This document shows, piece after piece, positions 2,457 through 63,044 of a DNA stretch of 64,000 bases. This DNA comes from Thermoproteota archaeon (lineage in GTDB: Archaea > Korarchaeota > Korarchaeia > Korarchaeales > Korarchaeaceae), in NCBI GenBank assembly GCA_027491915.1, contig JAOZGC010000004.1, forward strand, positions 64,001 through 128,000, given 5' to 3'. The notes under the pieces were generated by a model. That model was not told the DNA's origin. It searched no databases and worked only from the letters and a program-made list of their open reading frames with translations. A program made the translations under genes and the position numbers. Position 1 is the stretch's first letter, and each line of letters begins with the position of its first letter.

Positions 2457-3263
2457 TTGCCCAGGGACTTCCCGCGGCGGAACGACCTGGTGGTGGCCAC
2501 CGTCCTCAGGGTCGAGGAGCACGGGGTCGTCGTCTCCCTGGACGAGTACAGGGGGCTGCAGGGGTACATCCCCCGCGGGCACGTGGCCTCCGGGCGGATA
2601 AAGGACATCAGGGACTTCGTCCGGGAGGGAGACAGGGTAGTCGGCCGGGTCATAAGGGCCGACAGGTCCAAGGGACACGTGGACCTCTCCCTCAGGTACG
2701 TCAGCAGGGAGCAGGCTCGCAGGAAGCTCGAGGAGTGGAAGGAGAGGTCCAGAATAGTATCCCTGCTCAGGGTGGCCGCCTCTAGGGCCGGGAGCCCCGA
2801 CCCCGAGGGGGACGCCGTCAGGGCCTGGGAGACCCTGGAGGAGGCGGCCGGCGACGTGGTGGGGATCCTGGAGGAGGCCGCGGAGGAGGGGGCCGGCGTC
2901 CTGACGGACGCGGGGCTCCCGCCGAAGGTGGCCGAGGAGCTGCTGGCCCTGGTCAGGGAGCACTTCAAGCCGCCCCTCTACGAGAACCAGGTCCTGCTCA
3001 GGCTCTTCGTCCCGACCTCCGACGGGATCGAGGCCATAAGGTCGGCCCTCGGCGGCGCCGAGAGGTACAACTCGGACAAGGTCAGGGTTGAGGCCTTCTC
3101 CGCCGGGGCCCCCAGGTACGTGCTCAAGGTGTACAGCACGGACCCGACCTCGGTCAAGAGGACCACCACCCTGGCGGTCAAGAGGGTGCTGGAGGAGGTC
3201 AGGAGGGCGGGGGGGGTCGGGGAGGTGGTGGGCCAACGGGAGTCCAAGAGGAGGGCCGCCTGA
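2457..3263 (+). CDS. eif2a: Translation initiation factor aIF2 alpha subunit
   Basis: N-terminal S1 domain (LDEY.GLQGYIP, KGHVDLSL), GAPRY motif, canonical operon context. Confidence 0.95.
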   Translation: MPRDFPRRNDLVVATVLRVEEHGVVVSLDEYRGLQGYIPRGHVASGRIKDIRDFVREGDRVVGRVIRADRSKGHVDLSLRYVSREQARRKLEEWKERSRIVSLLRVAASRAGSPDPEGDAVRAWETLEEAAGDVVGILEEAAEEGAGVLTDAGLPPKVAEELLALVREHFKPPLYENQVLLRLFVPTSDGIEAIRSALGGAERYNSDKVRVEAFSAGAPRYVLKVYSTDPTSVKRTTTLAVKRVLEEVRRAGGVGEVVGQRESKRRAA

Positions 3264-57800: not shown

Positions 57801-59093
57801 ATGGCCCGCGTGCACATAGAGACCCACGGGTGCACAATGAACAGGAGCGACTCTGAGATAATGGCCGGGCTGCTCTCGTCGGCCGGGCACGTGATGGTTG
57901 GATCCCCGGAGGAGGCGGACGTCGTCATCCTGAACACCTGCAACGTCAAGCTCCCCACGGAGAGGAGGATGGTGAGGAGGGCCGCGGAGCTGTCCGCCTC
58001 CGGAGTCCCCCTGGTGGCCGCCGGGTGCATGGCCAGGACCCAGCCGGACCTCCTCAGGCCTTACGCGTCGGTCCTCCTGGGGCCGAGATCCTTAATCGAC
58101 GTGGTATCCGCGGTGGACGCGGCCCTGTCGGGGCGAGAATCCGAATTCTTGGAGGACAGGGCGCTTAACAAGGCGTCCATGCCGCGGGTCAGGTTGAACC
58201 CGACGTCGGCGCCCGTACCCGTCGAGGAGGGCTGCCTCGGCGCCTGCACGTACTGCATAACCAGATTCTCTCGGGGCAGGCTGAGGAGCTTCCCCCCAGA
58301 TGACGTGATCTCGGCCGTTGCAAAGGCCCTGAAGGGGGGAGCCGTAGAGATACTGCTCACCGGCGAGGATCTAGGCGTTTACGGGTGGGACCTGGGGATC
58401 ACGCTCGCCGACCTGCTGGGGGCGATCCTCTCGGAGATTGGAGGGTCATACAGGATCAGGGTCGGGATGGCCACCCCGGACTCCTTCTCCTCACTCCTTC
58501 CGGGGATACTGGACGTTTGGGGGGACGAGAGGGTGTACAGGTTCTTCCACCTGCCGGTCCAGAGCGGCAGCGACGAGATCCTGGCCGCCATGGGGAGGAG
58601 GTACACCTCGGCGGACTTCCTCTCCCTGGCCTCGACCCTGAGGGGGTGGGACCCCGACTCCTCCATATCGACGGACGTCATAGTGGGATTCCCCGGCGAG
58701 GATGGGGAGGACTTCGAGGCGACTCTGAGGCTCTTGGAGTCGGTGAAACCGGACTTCGTGAACATGAGCAGGTACGGACCCAGGCCGGGCACCAGGGCGG
58801 CCGCCTGGACCCCGCCGCCGCTGTCGGAGGTCAAGAGGAGATCCAGGGAGCTCCACGACCTGGTCATGGAGATAAAGATGAGGAGGAATGAGAGGCTCGT
58901 CGGACGGGAGCTCAAGGTCTTGGTCACCGAGAGGGCCCCCGGCGGTCGCTTTCAGGCTAGAACGGACTTCTACACCCCAGTCGCCCTGGAGGGGGAGGTT
59001 GAGGTGGGGAAGTTCTACCGCGCGGTGGTGGAGGAGGCCAGGAGCAACTACGTCGTCGCCAGGGTCGTCGGGGGGGCTCACGGCGGGAAGTAA
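57801..59093 (+). CDS. tRNA t6A37 methylthiotransferase (archaeal MtaB/MiaB-like)
   Basis: ETHGC.MN..DSE, NTCNVK, GC, EGCLGACTYC, HLPVQSGSD, TD.IVGFPGE, C-terminal TRAM. Confidence 0.92.
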   Translation: MARVHIETHGCTMNRSDSEIMAGLLSSAGHVMVGSPEEADVVILNTCNVKLPTERRMVRRAAELSASGVPLVAAGCMARTQPDLLRPYASVLLGPRSLIDVVSAVDAALSGRESEFLEDRALNKASMPRVRLNPTSAPVPVEEGCLGACTYCITRFSRGRLRSFPPDDVISAVAKALKGGAVEILLTGEDLGVYGWDLGITLADLLGAILSEIGGSYRIRVGMATPDSFSSLLPGILDVWGDERVYRFFHLPVQSGSDEILAAMGRRYTSADFLSLASTLRGWDPDSSISTDVIVGFPGEDGEDFEATLRLLESVKPDFVNMSRYGPRPGTRAAAWTPPPLSEVKRRSRELHDLVMEIKMRRNERLVGRELKVLVTERAPGGRFQARTDFYTPVALEGEVEVGKFYRAVVEEARSNYVVARVVGGAHGGK

Positions 59094-60133
59094 TCGTAGG
59101 GATCCCCTTCGACCTCCGGGGGTGCGGACGTTCCCGCGGAAACCATCATCAGGACGTAGAGGTTGCTGTAGTAGCCGATGGACTTCCTGCCCAGGGCTTC
59201 GCTTCCCAGCCTGACCCCCTCGGCCACCGTCGGCTCGCTTATCGGGCCGGATGGGGGGACCTCGTACTCGTTGAATCCAGGGTGCATCCGCCACAGGGTG
59301 AAACCGAGGTCCGCCGCGAACCCCAAGACCTCAGCCTCCCTCCTCCCCATCTCATCCGGCAGGTAGGAGATCACCCCGGCCGATCCCCTCTCCTTGCGCA
59401 GGGACTCCCATCCCCTCAGCAGGAAGGTCTCCACCCCCGGGGCGGTGTAGGGCGGATCGGCGATGAAGAGGTCGAACCTATCCCTGTACTCCCGAGGGAG
59501 TGGTTCCCTGAGGTCGGTCCTCGCCACCCGGACTTCCACGCCCAGGGCGTCCGCGACCTCGCCCGTCAATCCTATCACCCTCTCGTCCAGCTCGAATACT
59601 GTAACCTCCGCCCCGGTCGACGCCGCCAGGGGGGCCGCCACGAAATCGTCGTCCCCCATGACGGCCACCTCCCTCCCCCTGAGGGGGAACAATTCACCTA
59701 TCAGCCTGATCCTGCGGTTCAGGGTCTCCTCGGTGCACTGCAGCTGGTCCAGGTTCAGGTCCACCTCTATGGTCGGCCTCTCGAACCTGATCGGAGAGGG
59801 CCCGGAGAACCACCGGTCCAGGGGGGTGACCCTACCGTCCTCCGAGAGCTCTATGAGTCCCTCCTCCCTCAGGGATCCAGCCAGCCTGAGGGCCTTGTCA
59901 GAGAGCATGGGATAGTCCCTTGCCAACTCCCTCACCCCGCCAACCCTAGCCAGCCTCCAGGCCATTATCTCGAACTCCCTCGGCGACGCCATCGAGTTGT
60001 TCCTCCAAGACAGCCTCGCGGCCTCCTCGTCCTTGCCGTAGTGGTCTCGGGCTACCCTGACGTTGGCCTCCTCGTCCCACCTGAGGAACCTCCTGTAGGC
60101 CCGGAGCATGGCGGCGGTGAGGCCCCCACCCAT
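59078..60133 (-). CDS. bpsA: Branched-chain polyamine (N4-bis(aminopropyl)spermidine) synthase-family protein
   Basis: DQ...T.ET...R, GDDD, FELDER, DLREPLP....RFDLF..DPPYT..G...FL.RG, FN.Y. Confidence 0.82.
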   Translation of the reverse strand: MGGGLTAAMLRAYRRFLRWDEEANVRVARDHYGKDEEAARLSWRNNSMASPREFEIMAWRLARVGGVRELARDYPMLSDKALRLAGSLREEGLIELSEDGRVTPLDRWFSGPSPIRFERPTIEVDLNLDQLQCTEETLNRRIRLIGELFPLRGREVAVMGDDDFVAAPLAASTGAEVTVFELDERVIGLTGEVADALGVEVRVARTDLREPLPREYRDRFDLFIADPPYTAPGVETFLLRGWESLRKERGSAGVISYLPDEMGRREAEVLGFAADLGFTLWRMHPGFNEYEVPPSGPISEPTVAEGVRLGSEALGRKSIGYYSNLYVLMMVSAGTSAPPEVEGDPYDYFPP

Positions 60134-60498
60134 CAGACCCCCACCCTCCCCCTGAGCTCGACTATGTTGTGGGCCGACGGCCTGAGGATCTCCATCAGGA
60201 CTTCCACGGCCCCCTCCGCCCACTCCCTCTCGGAGAAGGAGACCGAATTCACCGTGGCATATGAGTGCTCCGGCCAGGTGTGCACGGCCACGTACCCCCT
60301 GGTGGTGAGGAGGAAGGCGCTCACGCCGTAGGGTTCGAACTCGTGCACGTGGAGGGCCCTCACCTCGTCTCCCATCCTGGCGGCCACGGCCTCCAGGGAG
60401 GCCCTCAACCTCTCCGGGGAATCGAGGATCGACGGATCCGCCACGTCGTAGAACTCCACTATGAGCCTGCTCCCGAGATCCGGCGCGTCCCGACTCAA
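60133..60498 (-). CDS. S-adenosylmethionine decarboxylase (SpeD)-like protein, predicted catalytically inactive
   Basis: G..LIVEFY, H.F.P.GVS and HTWPE..YA.V retained; ESH replaced by RGY and TCG by SFS. Confidence 0.85.
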   Translation of the reverse strand: MSRDAPDLGSRLIVEFYDVADPSILDSPERLRASLEAVAARMGDEVRALHVHEFEPYGVSAFLLTTRGYVAVHTWPEHSYATVNSVSFSEREWAEGAVEVLMEILRPSAHNIVELRGRVGV

Positions 60499-61184
60499 AT
60501 CTCTCCCTCCTCTCCCGGCTCGAACTCCACGACCTCGGCCTCGATCCCCCTGTCCCTGAGCGCGGCCCTCAACTCCGCCGGGGTCCCCCTAAGGACGGGA
60601 AAGGTGCCGTAGTGCATCGGCACCACCTTCCCCGCGCCCAGCAGCTCCACCGCCTTGGCCGCCTCCCTGGGTCCCATGGTGTAGTGCCCCCCTATGGGGA
60701 GCATCGCCACCTCCGGCCTGTACAGCTCCCCCAAGAGGGCCATCCCCGGGAAGACGCCCGTGTCCCCGGCGTGGTAGAAGGTGACCTCCCCCGTGGACAC
60801 GACGAACCCGACCGGAACCCCGAGAGAGGAGCTGTGGAGGGCCTGAGTCAGGACTACCTCGGCGCCCCTCAGGCTTACCGGCCCGCCCACGTTCGCCCCG
60901 ATGGCCTTGGCCCCCTCGCTCTGGGCGTGGTTCGCCAGCTCGAACACGCCCACCACCTCGGTACCCCACCTCTTGGACGCCTCTATGGCCTCTACCAGCC
61001 CGTGGTCGCCGTGGCTGTGCGTCACCAGCGCGTAATCCACCCCCTCGAGGACGTCCATCCCGACGTTCCCCTTGGCCGCCGAGGGGTTCCCCTCTATCCA
61101 GGGATCCAGCGCCACCTTGAGGCCGGAGCTCTCCACCAGGAACCCCGCGTGCCCCACGTACTTGACCAACATCCTCCGGATCAC
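60495..61184 (-). CDS. UPF0173-like metal-dependent hydrolase (MBL fold)
   Basis: GHA.F, DPWI.GNP, THSHGDH, A.HSS, YHAGDT, LPIGG.YTMGP, PMHY.TFP. Confidence 0.9.
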   Translation of the reverse strand: MIRRMLVKYVGHAGFLVESSGLKVALDPWIEGNPSAAKGNVGMDVLEGVDYALVTHSHGDHGLVEAIEASKRWGTEVVGVFELANHAQSEGAKAIGANVGGPVSLRGAEVVLTQALHSSSLGVPVGFVVSTGEVTFYHAGDTGVFPGMALLGELYRPEVAMLPIGGHYTMGPREAAKAVELLGAGKVVPMHYGTFPVLRGTPAELRAALRDRGIEAEVVEFEPGEEGEI

Positions 61185-61337
61185 CTGGCGTCATCCACCG
61201 GCCCGCCATAATTTAGGCTAGCCGGCTCCGACCGTTCCCCAGAATAGCCTTATATAGGGTCGGCGGCCGGCCGGAGGAGCGATATTGCGCACGTTAACTC
61301 TATCTAATTCCAGCGTGGCGCGGGAGGTCGGTGTCTC

Positions 61338-63044
61338 ATGGGTCAGCGGGTGGTGGGGAACCTGATATCGGTGGCCGGCAGGGACATACCGATAGGCGGG
61401 CCGACGCCGGATGTGAGGGAGGGGGAGACCCTCCTGAGGAGAACCCTGTCCCTCTGCCCGGATTGCTACAGGCTCCTCCCGGCGATCGTCGTCGAGAGGG
61501 AGGGGAAGACCTACATAAGGAGGGTGTGTCCTGATCACGGCGAGATCGAGGAGATCTACTGGGGGGACTCAGATTTCTACAAGAGGGCCATGAAGTACGA
61601 GGTCCCCCCCATCCGAGTCTCGCCGAACGTCCAGGAGGTCACAGCCCCGTGCCCCTTCAACTGCGGGCTCTGCCCCATGCACGGCGACATGACGGCGCTA
61701 GCCAACATAGTGTTGACGAACAGGTGCAACCTGAACTGCTGGTACTGCTTCTTCTTCGCCGAAAAGGCCGGATTCGTCTACGAGCCATCCATAGATGAGA
61801 TAAGGAAAATGGTGAGGGTCCTCAGATCCCAAAAACCGGTTCCCGGCCTGGCCGTCCAGCTAACCGGGGGGGAGCCCACCCTGAGGGACGACCTGGTAGA
61901 GATCGTTAAGATGATAAGAGAGGAGGGGGTAAGACATATACAGCTCAACACCCACGGTATAACCTTCCTGGAGAAGCCTGACCTGATGAGGAGGGTGAGG
62001 GAAGCCGGGGTCAACACCATCTACATGAGCTTCGACGGAGTCAGCCCGAAGGTAAACGTGAAGAACCACTGGGAGGTCCCCTACGTGCTGGACATAGCCA
62101 GGGAGGCGGGCATGACCAGCATAGTTCTGGTGCCCACCGTCATAAGGGGTTTCAACACCCACGAGCTGGGGGACATAATCAGATTCGCCGCGTACAACAT
62201 AGACGTGGTCAGGGGCGTCAACTTCCAGCCGGTCTCCCTGACGGGCCAGGTGCCCCGTTCCGAGAGGGACAGGATCAGGATAACCATCCCCGACGTGATA
62301 AGGCTCATAGAGGAGCAGACCGACGGTCAGATCCCGGTGGAATCCTGGTACCCAGTCCCCTTCGTCTACGTGATAAGCGAGTTCATAGAGGCCGTAACCG
62401 GGAGGCCCCAGTTCAAGATGACCAACCACCCGGTCTGCGGCGCTGCCACCTACGTCTTTCCGGAGTTCGAGGGATCGGGATCCGAGAGGAGGATCGGGAG
62501 GTTCGTCCCAATAACCGATTTCATAAGGGTAGAGGAGTTCCACGACTACCTCAGGGAGAAGGTGGAGGACATCAGGCGCGGCTCCAACAAGTACCTCGTC
62601 CTGCTGAAGGTGATCTCATCGCTGAGGAAGTTCATAGAGCGGGATAAGCAGCCCGAGGGGCTCGACATATATGGGATACTCAGGAAGGTCCTCCTCAAGA
62701 GGAACTACGACGCGCTGGGCGAGTTCCACTACAAGTCACTTTTCCTCGGGATGATGCACTTCATGGACCTCTACAACTACGACGTCCAGAGGGTGATGAG
62801 GTGCAACATACACTACCTCAGCCCGGACGGGAGGATCATACCGTTCTGCGCCTTCAACGTCCTCCCGGATATCTACAGGGACAAGATTCAGAGGGAGCAC
62901 TCCGTCAGCCTGGAGGAGTACGCCGCGGCGCACGGCCCGGAGTCCGTCGGGGAGGCGAGCAAGTACAGGAGGGACGTGAAGGCACTGGAATCCGGGGAAC
63001 CCTACAGGCGCGCCTACGCACCCTTCATGGAGGCCTGGAGGTGA
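61338..63044 (+). CDS. tes: Tetraether lipid synthase (Tes/GDGT-MAS, radical SAM)
   Basis: N-terminal SLCPDC..CPDHG, CPFNCGLC..H, LTNRCNLNCWYCF, NFQPVS, HP.CG, MHFMD.YNYD..R..RC.IHY, IPFC. Confidence 0.9.
   Translation: MGQRVVGNLISVAGRDIPIGGPTPDVREGETLLRRTLSLCPDCYRLLPAIVVEREGKTYIRRVCPDHGEIEEIYWGDSDFYKRAMKYEVPPIRVSPNVQEVTAPCPFNCGLCPMHGDMTALANIVLTNRCNLNCWYCFFFAEKAGFVYEPSIDEIRKMVRVLRSQKPVPGLAVQLTGGEPTLRDDLVEIVKMIREEGVRHIQLNTHGITFLEKPDLMRRVREAGVNTIYMSFDGVSPKVNVKNHWEVPYVLDIAREAGMTSIVLVPTVIRGFNTHELGDIIRFAAYNIDVVRGVNFQPVSLTGQVPRSERDRIRITIPDVIRLIEEQTDGQIPVESWYPVPFVYVISEFIEAVTGRPQFKMTNHPVCGAATYVFPEFEGSGSERRIGRFVPITDFIRVEEFHDYLREKVEDIRRGSNKYLVLLKVISSLRKFIERDKQPEGLDIYGILRKVLLKRNYDALGEFHYKSLFLGMMHFMDLYNYDVQRVMRCNIHYLSPDGRIIPFCAFNVLPDIYRDKIQREHSVSLEEYAAAHGPESVGEASKYRRDVKALESGEPYRRAYAPFMEAWR

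Follow-up and report, generated by a model that had tools for sequence, protein, structure and literature searches.

A conserved archaeal pseudoenzyme of the S-adenosylmethionine decarboxylase fold as the putative non-catalytic half of a two-gene enzyme in Korarchaeota

What is the function of a protein that belongs to the fold family of S-adenosylmethionine decarboxylase (AdoMetDC, SpeD) but lacks the serine from which the pyruvoyl cofactor of that enzyme is made? The question is raised by a stretch of 64,000 nucleotides (the window) from a Thermoproteota archaeon of the family Korarchaeaceae (GenBank assembly GCA_027491915.1, contig JAOZGC010000004.1, positions 64,001 to 128,000). On its minus strand lie three genes, each overlapping the next where one stops and the other starts, which encode, in order, a UPF0173 metallo-beta-lactamase-fold (MBL) hydrolase, a short SpeD-like protein that we call dSpeD and a relative of the branched-polyamine synthase BpsA (Table 1). 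The original prediction, made from the letters of the window, had treated dSpeD as a dead AdoMetDC that serves as a subunit either of BpsA or of an active SpeD. The answer that we favour, with somewhat better than even confidence and on the strength of sequence comparison, is that dSpeD would be the non-catalytic half of an unfused, face-to-face AdoMetDC encoded by two genes. The other half would be KorESH, as we name the second, serine-bearing SpeD paralogue of the same genomes, and the two would form one composite active site. Residues of the AdoMetDC site (Glu62, Ser63, His64, Cys83, Pro51, Ser55, His68 and Glu72) are given in the numbering of the Thermotoga maritima enzyme. Forty-three genomes of the phylum were compared, with genera labelled g1 to g7; the source genome (G000) is 91% complete.

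dSpeD belongs to the AdoMetDC fold family but fails the traits that define the enzyme, namely the serine, the cysteine and the equivalog score. It matches the Pfam family AdoMet_dc (PF02675) over residues 12-115 with 75.3 bits against a cut-off of 25, and falls below the cut-off of the NCBIfam equivalog TIGR03330 (67.1 versus 75.65 bits). Its AlphaFold2 model has a mean predicted local distance difference test score (pLDDT) of 90.8, and the best matches of the model among solved structures (Foldseek) are the AdoMetDCs of T. maritima and Aquifex aeolicus (1TLU, 1TMI, 1VR7 and 2III; TM-scores of 0.76-0.84). The N-terminal domain from human spermine synthase comes next, together with potato AdoMetDC and one chain of the Trypanosoma brucei AdoMetDC/prozyme heterodimer, and the model also aligns to human AdoMetDC. 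A residue-by-residue alignment with 1TLU (E 7.9e-13) places E15, S60, H73 and E77 of dSpeD on Glu11, Ser55, His68 and Glu72, and Pro56 on Pro51. It agrees with the original description of a SpeD fold in which GVS and HTWPE are kept (YGVS carrying Ser55, HTWPE carrying His68 and Glu72) and in which the E-S-H of the cleavage site has become R-G-Y and the cysteine is gone: R67-G68-Y69 lie on Glu62-Ser63-His64 and F88 on Cys83. The equivalents of Glu11, Pro51, Ser55, His68, Pro71 and Glu72 are all retained, and Gly, Tyr and Phe stand in for Ser63, His64 and Cys83. Because there is no serine at the cleavage site, no pyruvoyl group can form in dSpeD.

The variant is conserved. A word-index search returned 19 relatives of dSpeD (44-100% identity), all from Korarchaeota; the 13 of them that were aligned all have (K/R)GY together with an aromatic residue in place of the cysteine, and the nearest ESH-bearing proteins are about 33% identical. 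When 1.84 billion representatives were searched exhaustively without a profile, a single cluster, the dSpeD clade, was found with E below 1e-30, followed by ordinary SpeDs. Among 16 aligned orthologues, which are 40-56% identical to the query, xGY and the aromatic residue are universal and 28 columns are invariant. The ratio of non-synonymous to synonymous substitution rates (dN/dS) is 0.020-0.149 in the six of 11 pairs that gave an estimate, the other five being saturated at synonymous sites; this is comparable to the values for the MBL neighbour (0.031-0.114). The open reading frame (ORF) is intact in all 21 loci. Strong purifying selection acts on dSpeD, a stand-alone pseudoenzyme of archaea that is conserved and is not a decaying gene. 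The original prediction had proposed just such a pseudoenzyme, and had looked to purifying selection, which is seen in these figures.

AdoMet_dc matches occur in 34 of the 43 genomes. dSpeD is found in 30 of the 31 genomes of g1-g4, four genera of one Korarchaeota family, the exception (G024) being 70% complete; the assignment was by motif in 19 genomes and the source genome, and by adjacency to the MBL gene in the others. A second AdoMet_dc copy is present in 24 of these 30 genomes. The 16 that were examined are all ESH-type, form one clade and have the motifs G-E-S-H and S-S-C; these are the KorESH proteins. In the source genome KorESH is encoded outside the window, on contig 2 (L001:1471-1860), where it answers to the ESH-bearing SpeD that the original prediction expected elsewhere in the genome. 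It too scores below the TIGR03330 cut-off (72.4 bits), and NCBIfam fails to separate the two paralogues. The aminopropyltransferase SpeE has the same span, being found in four of five g2 genomes, 19 of 21 in g3 and three of four in g4, and in none of the five in g5. All five g5 genomes lack dSpeD, KorESH and SpeE together, and the MBL and flanking genes remain. This joint absence with retention of the MBL gene ties dSpeD to the pathway of decarboxylated S-adenosylmethionine (dcSAM) and aminopropyl transfer, not to the MBL protein. A 112-residue ORF with a weak AdoMet_dc match (28.7 bits; L066:1499-1837, G038:C36) was seen in a genus otherwise without SpeD, dSpeD and SpeE, and may encode another degenerate protein of the AdoMetDC fold.

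The evidence that carries the proposal is the way in which the two paralogues have lost different residues, as revealed by a column comparison of 98 canonical representatives, 14 KorESH and 16 dSpeD sequences. KorESH keeps the residues of the cleavage site and Cys83, the catalytic proton donor. Ser63 (Ser in 96 of the canonical sequences), His64 (97) and Cys83 (90) are present in all 14; at the first two of these positions all 16 dSpeD sequences have Gly and Tyr, respectively, and at the third Phe (12) or Tyr (4). Glu62 (Glu in 92 canonical sequences) is likewise in every KorESH, and is free to vary in dSpeD, only three of 16 retaining it. The reverse holds for the residues that dSpeD keeps. 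At the Ser55 column, which is Ser or Thr in 98/98 canonical sequences, KorESH has Leu or Ile in 14/14 and dSpeD has Ser in 16/16. Pro51 (97/98 canonical) is in no KorESH sequence and in every dSpeD. His68, invariant in the canonical set (98/98), is His in eight, Arg in five and Thr in one of the KorESH sequences (the Thr being that of the source genome), and Glu72 (97/98) survives in six; both are present in all 16 dSpeD sequences, as is Pro at the Pro71 column, which varies in KorESH (Ile in three). Eight further second copies are all ESH-type and all without Ser at the Ser55 position. In these alignments, KorESH and dSpeD divide the active-site residues between them in the same way as the two halves of the class 2 enzyme.

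The class 2 enzymes provide the closest guide to what such a division would mean. According to the account of Kozbial and Mushegian (PMC1282579), the pyruvoyl serine, the glutamate that precedes it and the adjacent cysteine lie in the N half, and the processing histidine and the ribose-binding glutamate of strand 12 in the C half. The same account describes the prokaryotic AdoMetDCs as holding the union of both residue sets, as if two identical molecules made up the sandwich. Human Ser229, in the C half, is treated in PMC3975893 as the analogue of T. maritima Ser55, and the bacterial half-enzymes are described as building the sandwich via the faces of their sheets (eLife 2016, PMC5201418). The C half of the eukaryotic enzyme (human, potato) is thus described, in PMC1282579 and PMC3975893, as being, like dSpeD, an uncleaved half-fold without pyruvoyl; this half supplies the processing histidine, the ribose-binding glutamate and the serine to a single site, the N half having lost them. 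In contrast to class 2, dSpeD and KorESH are each of class 1b size and are encoded by two genes on different contigs, in an archaeon. They have no detectable sequence relationship to class 2 beyond the family level, which argues for an independent origin.

A second comparison is with fusions of two SpeD domains. The degraded C-terminal SpeD domains of the bacterial fusions of Victivallis vadensis and Desulfobacter latus, as reported by Li et al. 2023 (PMC10407285), resemble dSpeD in being class 1b, in having lost critical active-site residues and in being paired with an active SpeD; unlike dSpeD, they are bacterial and part of a fusion. For V. vadensis, the fusion of SpeD with its degraded SpeD domain is described there as a working AdoMetDC that is cleaved at one site only, and the same report states that no SpeD fusion was detected in extant archaea (PMC10407285). 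Two fused metagenomic proteins divide kept and lost residues like KorESH and dSpeD. In P0139, the N domain has ESH and TC but RTFPS, and the C domain has GISG and HTWPE with neither the Ser nor the Cys; in P0027 the N domain has HTWPQ and the C domain RAH with HTWPE. A search for longer, fused forms of the dSpeD clade itself gave none, only an unrelated PPK-domain fusion of 30% identity, and this is weak evidence. Stand-alone SpeD homologues without the serine were also encountered in metagenomes: P0104, P0156 and P0034 have HAH, HGH and KAH, respectively, at the cleavage site and no Cys, and keep GV(T/S)G and HTWPE, P0034 carrying in addition a C-terminal extension of about 200 residues. The phenomenon may therefore be wider than the dSpeD clade.

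The trypanosomatid prozyme, to which the original prediction appealed, is a more distant parallel. It too is a dead, unprocessed paralogue found beside an active AdoMetDC, with which it is reported to form a heterodimer (PMC3253432, PMC5201418), and the coexistence of the two paralogues is shared, since dSpeD stands beside an ESH-type SpeD in the genome. The architecture differs. As presented in PMC5201418, the prozyme is a full class 2 protein that dimerizes edge-to-edge and activates its partner allosterically by relieving autoinhibition, whereas dSpeD, a class 1b half-enzyme of 121 residues, is expected to form a face-to-face pair to which it would contribute residues of the active site.

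On this basis the following scheme can be proposed. An ancestral speD gene would have been duplicated in this Korarchaeota family, and the copies would then have lost different residues. KorESH and dSpeD would pair face-to-face, as class 1b protomers do, so as to give one complete site, made from the pyruvoyl group, Glu and Cys of KorESH with Ser60, His73 and Glu77 of dSpeD (Pro56 being kept as well), and one vestigial site, in which Gly, Tyr and Phe of dSpeD would face the Leu or Ile of KorESH. Packing at the vestigial site could, in our reading, favour the heterodimer. The pair would supply dcSAM to SpeE and, in the genera g1 and g2, also to the BpsA-like aminopropyltransferase; if the latter does receive it, the addition of bpsA 3' to dSpeD makes a sensible polyamine grouping. 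We infer that KorESH binds dSpeD, that each protomer contributes the residues named and that processing or activity depends on dSpeD. An 82-row tree, built by a quick method with 49 of the 98 canonical representatives (every second one), is compatible with a duplication in the ancestor of the family followed by division of residues between the copies, but does not prove it: dSpeD and KorESH each form one clade (SH-aLRT 99) on a long stem. A three-chain complex prediction, in which the BpsA-like protein was scored against KorESH and dSpeD, gave 0.00 in two runs without controls and is no evidence either way on whether the BpsA-like protein binds.

Several observations weigh against this scheme. 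In the tree, dSpeD and KorESH join each other only weakly (SH-aLRT 81), and in the company of one long-branch sequence, so that the grouping could be long-branch attraction. The two genes are unlinked, being on different contigs in the source genome and about 25 kb apart in g3, and the dSpeD gene is coupled to the MBL gene and, in the window, to the bpsA-like gene instead of to KorESH. In six of the 30 genomes with dSpeD no ESH-type copy was found; four of these are 63-82% complete, the other two 92 and 95%. (In G016 and G018, which are among the four, the contig stops before the position at which g3 genomes carry KorESH.) The degeneration of KorESH is incomplete, with His68 kept in eight of 14 sequences and the whole HTWPE motif kept in g2, and KorESH homodimers may for this reason still work in some genera. 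The premise that in class 1b dimers Ser55, His68 and Glu72 would work across the interface, in the site of the opposite protomer, is itself carried over from homology with class 2. Finally, the S55A mutant of the T. maritima enzyme is reported still to self-process (PMC3975893), so the loss of Ser55 alone is no proof of dependence on a partner.

A stronger version of the same idea is that KorESH would remain immature or inactive without the His, Ser and Glu of dSpeD, and that the vestigial pocket, with Gly68, Tyr69 and Phe88 of dSpeD opposite the Leu or Ile of KorESH, would act either as a lock on the heterodimer or as a regulatory ligand site that tunes the supply of dcSAM to SpeE and the BpsA-like enzyme. 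We consider this version rather unlikely. Were it true, an archaeon would have repeated independently, and in unfused form, the path to the eukaryotic class 2 AdoMetDC with its putrescine site.

A different concern is the substrate of KorESH. SpeD relatives in crenarchaea act as arginine decarboxylase, and were KorESH such an enzyme, no AdoMetDC would be left. This possibility has become less likely. The source genome encodes, besides agmatinase and deoxyhypusine synthase, a separate 488-residue ornithine/lysine/arginine decarboxylase of the AAT fold, so that KorESH need not be the arginine decarboxylase; a search of the genome found neither PdaD nor an arginine decarboxylase of the alanine-racemase fold. 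A homologue search with KorESH gave nine relatives, all from Korarchaeota, and no named crenarchaeal enzymes. Archaea normally need TiaS for the agmatidine of tRNA-Ile, and we note that the source genome, at its 91% completeness, gave no match to TiaS_FLD (PF08489).

If dSpeD does not share a site with KorESH, it could instead be a stand-alone homodimer outside catalysis that binds a ligand, as a sensor or carrier of S-adenosylmethionine, dcSAM or methylthioadenosine. The ribose-binding Glu never varies, nor do the other residues of the pocket, the fold is modelled with confidence, and the invariant Gly-Tyr together with the aromatic residue at the Cys position suggests a pocket that has been remodelled and not one that has decayed. 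However, this would explain neither the reciprocal degeneration of KorESH nor the fused analogues in which the residues are divided in the same way, and we regard a free-standing ligand binder as unlikely.

Alternatively, dSpeD might serve aminopropyltransferases (the BpsA-like enzyme in this genome, SpeE in others) as an accessory or scaffold subunit, in the manner of a separate spermine synthase N-domain. In human spermine synthase this domain, a non-catalytic AdoMetDC-like fold linked to an aminopropyltransferase, serves dimerization. The dSpeD model matches it (3C6K, Foldseek E 3e-6, TMq 0.57), dSpeD and SpeE are lost together in g5, and the stop codon TGA of dSpeD (60135..60133) shares its A with the ATG of the bpsA-like gene (60133..60131) in a minus-strand TGATG, as the original prediction had it. 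The overlap, 1 nt in the window, is 4 nt in the closest relatives L005, L007 and L009, the three of 21 species-representative loci in which a bpsA-like gene follows dSpeD. Among g1-g4 only g1 and g2 have the gene, and there it stands directly downstream of dSpeD (6/6 genomes). On the other hand, the spermine synthase domain is fused to its transferase, whereas dSpeD is free-standing, retains catalytic-site residues and is present without a BpsA-like gene: 24 of the 25 genomes of g3 and g4 have dSpeD, and in none of the 25 does a bpsA-like gene exceed the cut-off. In the source genome SpeE lies away from dSpeD, and the idea leaves unexplained why dSpeD keeps exactly those catalytic residues that KorESH has lost. 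We judge it decidedly unlikely. Nor is there support for the proposal in the original prediction of a subunit dedicated to BpsA; the pair conserved everywhere is that of MBL and dSpeD. Of the two partners then suggested, it is the active SpeD that complementary residue loss and joint presence and absence favour.

The bpsA-like gene itself is of interest in this context. Its product matches BpsA_C (PF01861) with 108.7 bits (cut-off 27), but only over profile positions 12-184 of 243, and is divergent by comparison with a canonical BpsA of the same phylum at 342 bits. Alignment with Thermococcus kodakarensis BpsA (5XNC, E 3.9e-16) nevertheless puts Asp159/Asp160 (GDDD) and Asp225 (DPPxT), whose roles are covered in a review (PMC12979288), in place, and GDDD and DPPYT, correctly read in the original prediction as kept, align to the GDDD and DPPET of 5XNC. 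The g2 orthologues have DPTYT in place of DPPYT. The C-terminal tail, which has four acidic residues here and two in g2 and in which a YDY motif is conserved, gives no alignment to the solved enzymes, whose acidic lid consists of Glu339 and Asp342-Glu345. BpsA_C is over the cut-off in eight of the 43 genomes, namely the source genome, all five of g2, G001 with a canonical copy and G005 with a marginal match of 27.5 bits, and in none of the 21 g3, four g4 and five g5 genomes. The canonical copy, in another family of the phylum, is cut by the contig start (G001:C97:3-653, 342 bits) and lies about 2 kb from SpeE (2633-3172) on the opposite strand, in a genome with a single canonical ESH/TC SpeD and no dSpeD. 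A second, weak BpsA_C-like match of 20 bits, to a methyltransferase, was seen in the source genome at C4:61542-61829. The 3' end of the bpsA-like gene overlaps, by 16 nt (59078..59093), that of a convergent MiaB-like radical-SAM/TRAM gene (57801..59093, plus strand), which leaves no space for separate terminators.

The third possibility is that dSpeD is the partner or regulator of the UPF0173 hydrolase upstream, in a new two-component system. In 20 of the 21 loci the MBL protein (NF001911, 211.7 bits against a cut-off of 144; 6HRG, Igni_1254, E 9.9e-47) is encoded directly upstream of dSpeD and on its strand; the remaining locus, L007, begins 38 nt ahead of dSpeD, too late to include the gene. 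In the window the MBL stop overlaps the TTG start of dSpeD in a minus-strand TTGA, which escaped the original prediction. Overlaps of 4-11 nt between the two genes are seen in g1, g3 and g4, and the pair is kept where the upstream context is rearranged (L021, L022). Yet g2 has a gap of 42-47 nt, and an MBL orthologue over the cut-off is present in 36 of the 43 genomes, including dSpeD-less ones of g5 (4/5), g6 and g7, where other genes follow MBL and no trace of dSpeD was found at the loci. The MBL gene must therefore be older and independent. The UPF0173 family is also widespread in organisms without dSpeD, as the controls indicate, and the distribution of dSpeD tracks SpeD and SpeE and not MBL. 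A search of the literature on UPF0173 surfaced, among the papers listed, no work on the function of the family. The layout looks as if the string had grown by stepwise 3' addition, dSpeD and then bpsA joining an older HEAT-MBL operon, and a functional pairing of dSpeD with MBL seems to us very unlikely. The HEAT-repeat gene in question, of about 210-240 codons, precedes MBL in g2, g3 and g5 loci (L010:2643-3299, L009:2602-3225, L064:747-1472), the L010 ORF clearing the Pfam HEAT_2 cut-off and that of L009 scoring below it; it is absent from the window, in which MBL abuts a divergent radical-SAM gene. In one Korarchaeum metagenome-assembled genome (L018:340-888, the same genome as L054) the MBL gene is interrupted by a frameshift or an assembly error, the tblastn match covering residues 46-229 and the ORF at its start having only 34 codons.

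That dSpeD is a decaying or neutrally drifting duplicate, as its missing cofactor Ser and catalytic Cys might suggest, is contradicted by the invariant columns, the low dN/dS and the intact ORFs described above and is scarcely credible.

Table 1. Features of the dSpeD gene string and its upstream flank, in window positions.
Feature	Positions	Strand	Remarks
dSpeD, AdoMetDC-fold pseudoenzyme	60133..60498	-	TTG start, 121 aa; PF02675
bpsA-like gene, divergent BpsA/DUF43-family aminopropyltransferase	59078..60133	-	351 aa; PF01861
UPF0173 metallo-beta-lactamase-fold (MBL) hydrolase	60495..61184	-	229 aa; NF001911; first in the string
Intergenic stretch between MBL and the divergent radical-SAM HMPTM gene	61185..61337	.	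sole room for a putative promoter of the string (from gene layout)
Radical-SAM HMPTM gene, divergent from MBL	61338..63044	+	from gene layout

To our knowledge, all characterized prokaryotic AdoMetDCs are homo-oligomers of identical half-enzymes, and we know of one-site composite AdoMetDCs only as fusions (class 2 and a few SpeD-degraded-SpeD proteins of bacteria) and as the pair that the trypanosome enzyme forms with prozyme. Our search of the literature found no description of the Korarchaeota pair or of any prokaryotic AdoMetDC encoded by two genes, and a search on inactive SpeD paralogues found, among the papers listed, no prokaryotic stand-alone form described. The Korarchaeum cryptofilum orthologue of dSpeD (WP_012308711.1) and its relatives are named "adenosylmethionine decarboxylase" in public databases; as these proteins are incapable of forming the cofactor, reconstructions of the pathway in Korarchaeota count the wrong gene. 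If the proposal for dSpeD and KorESH is correct, a two-gene archaeal AdoMetDC with a divided active site would represent the missing unfused stage, and the division of labour within this active site would need no fusion. Two proteins of about 125 residues would also provide a simple experimental system in which to study it.

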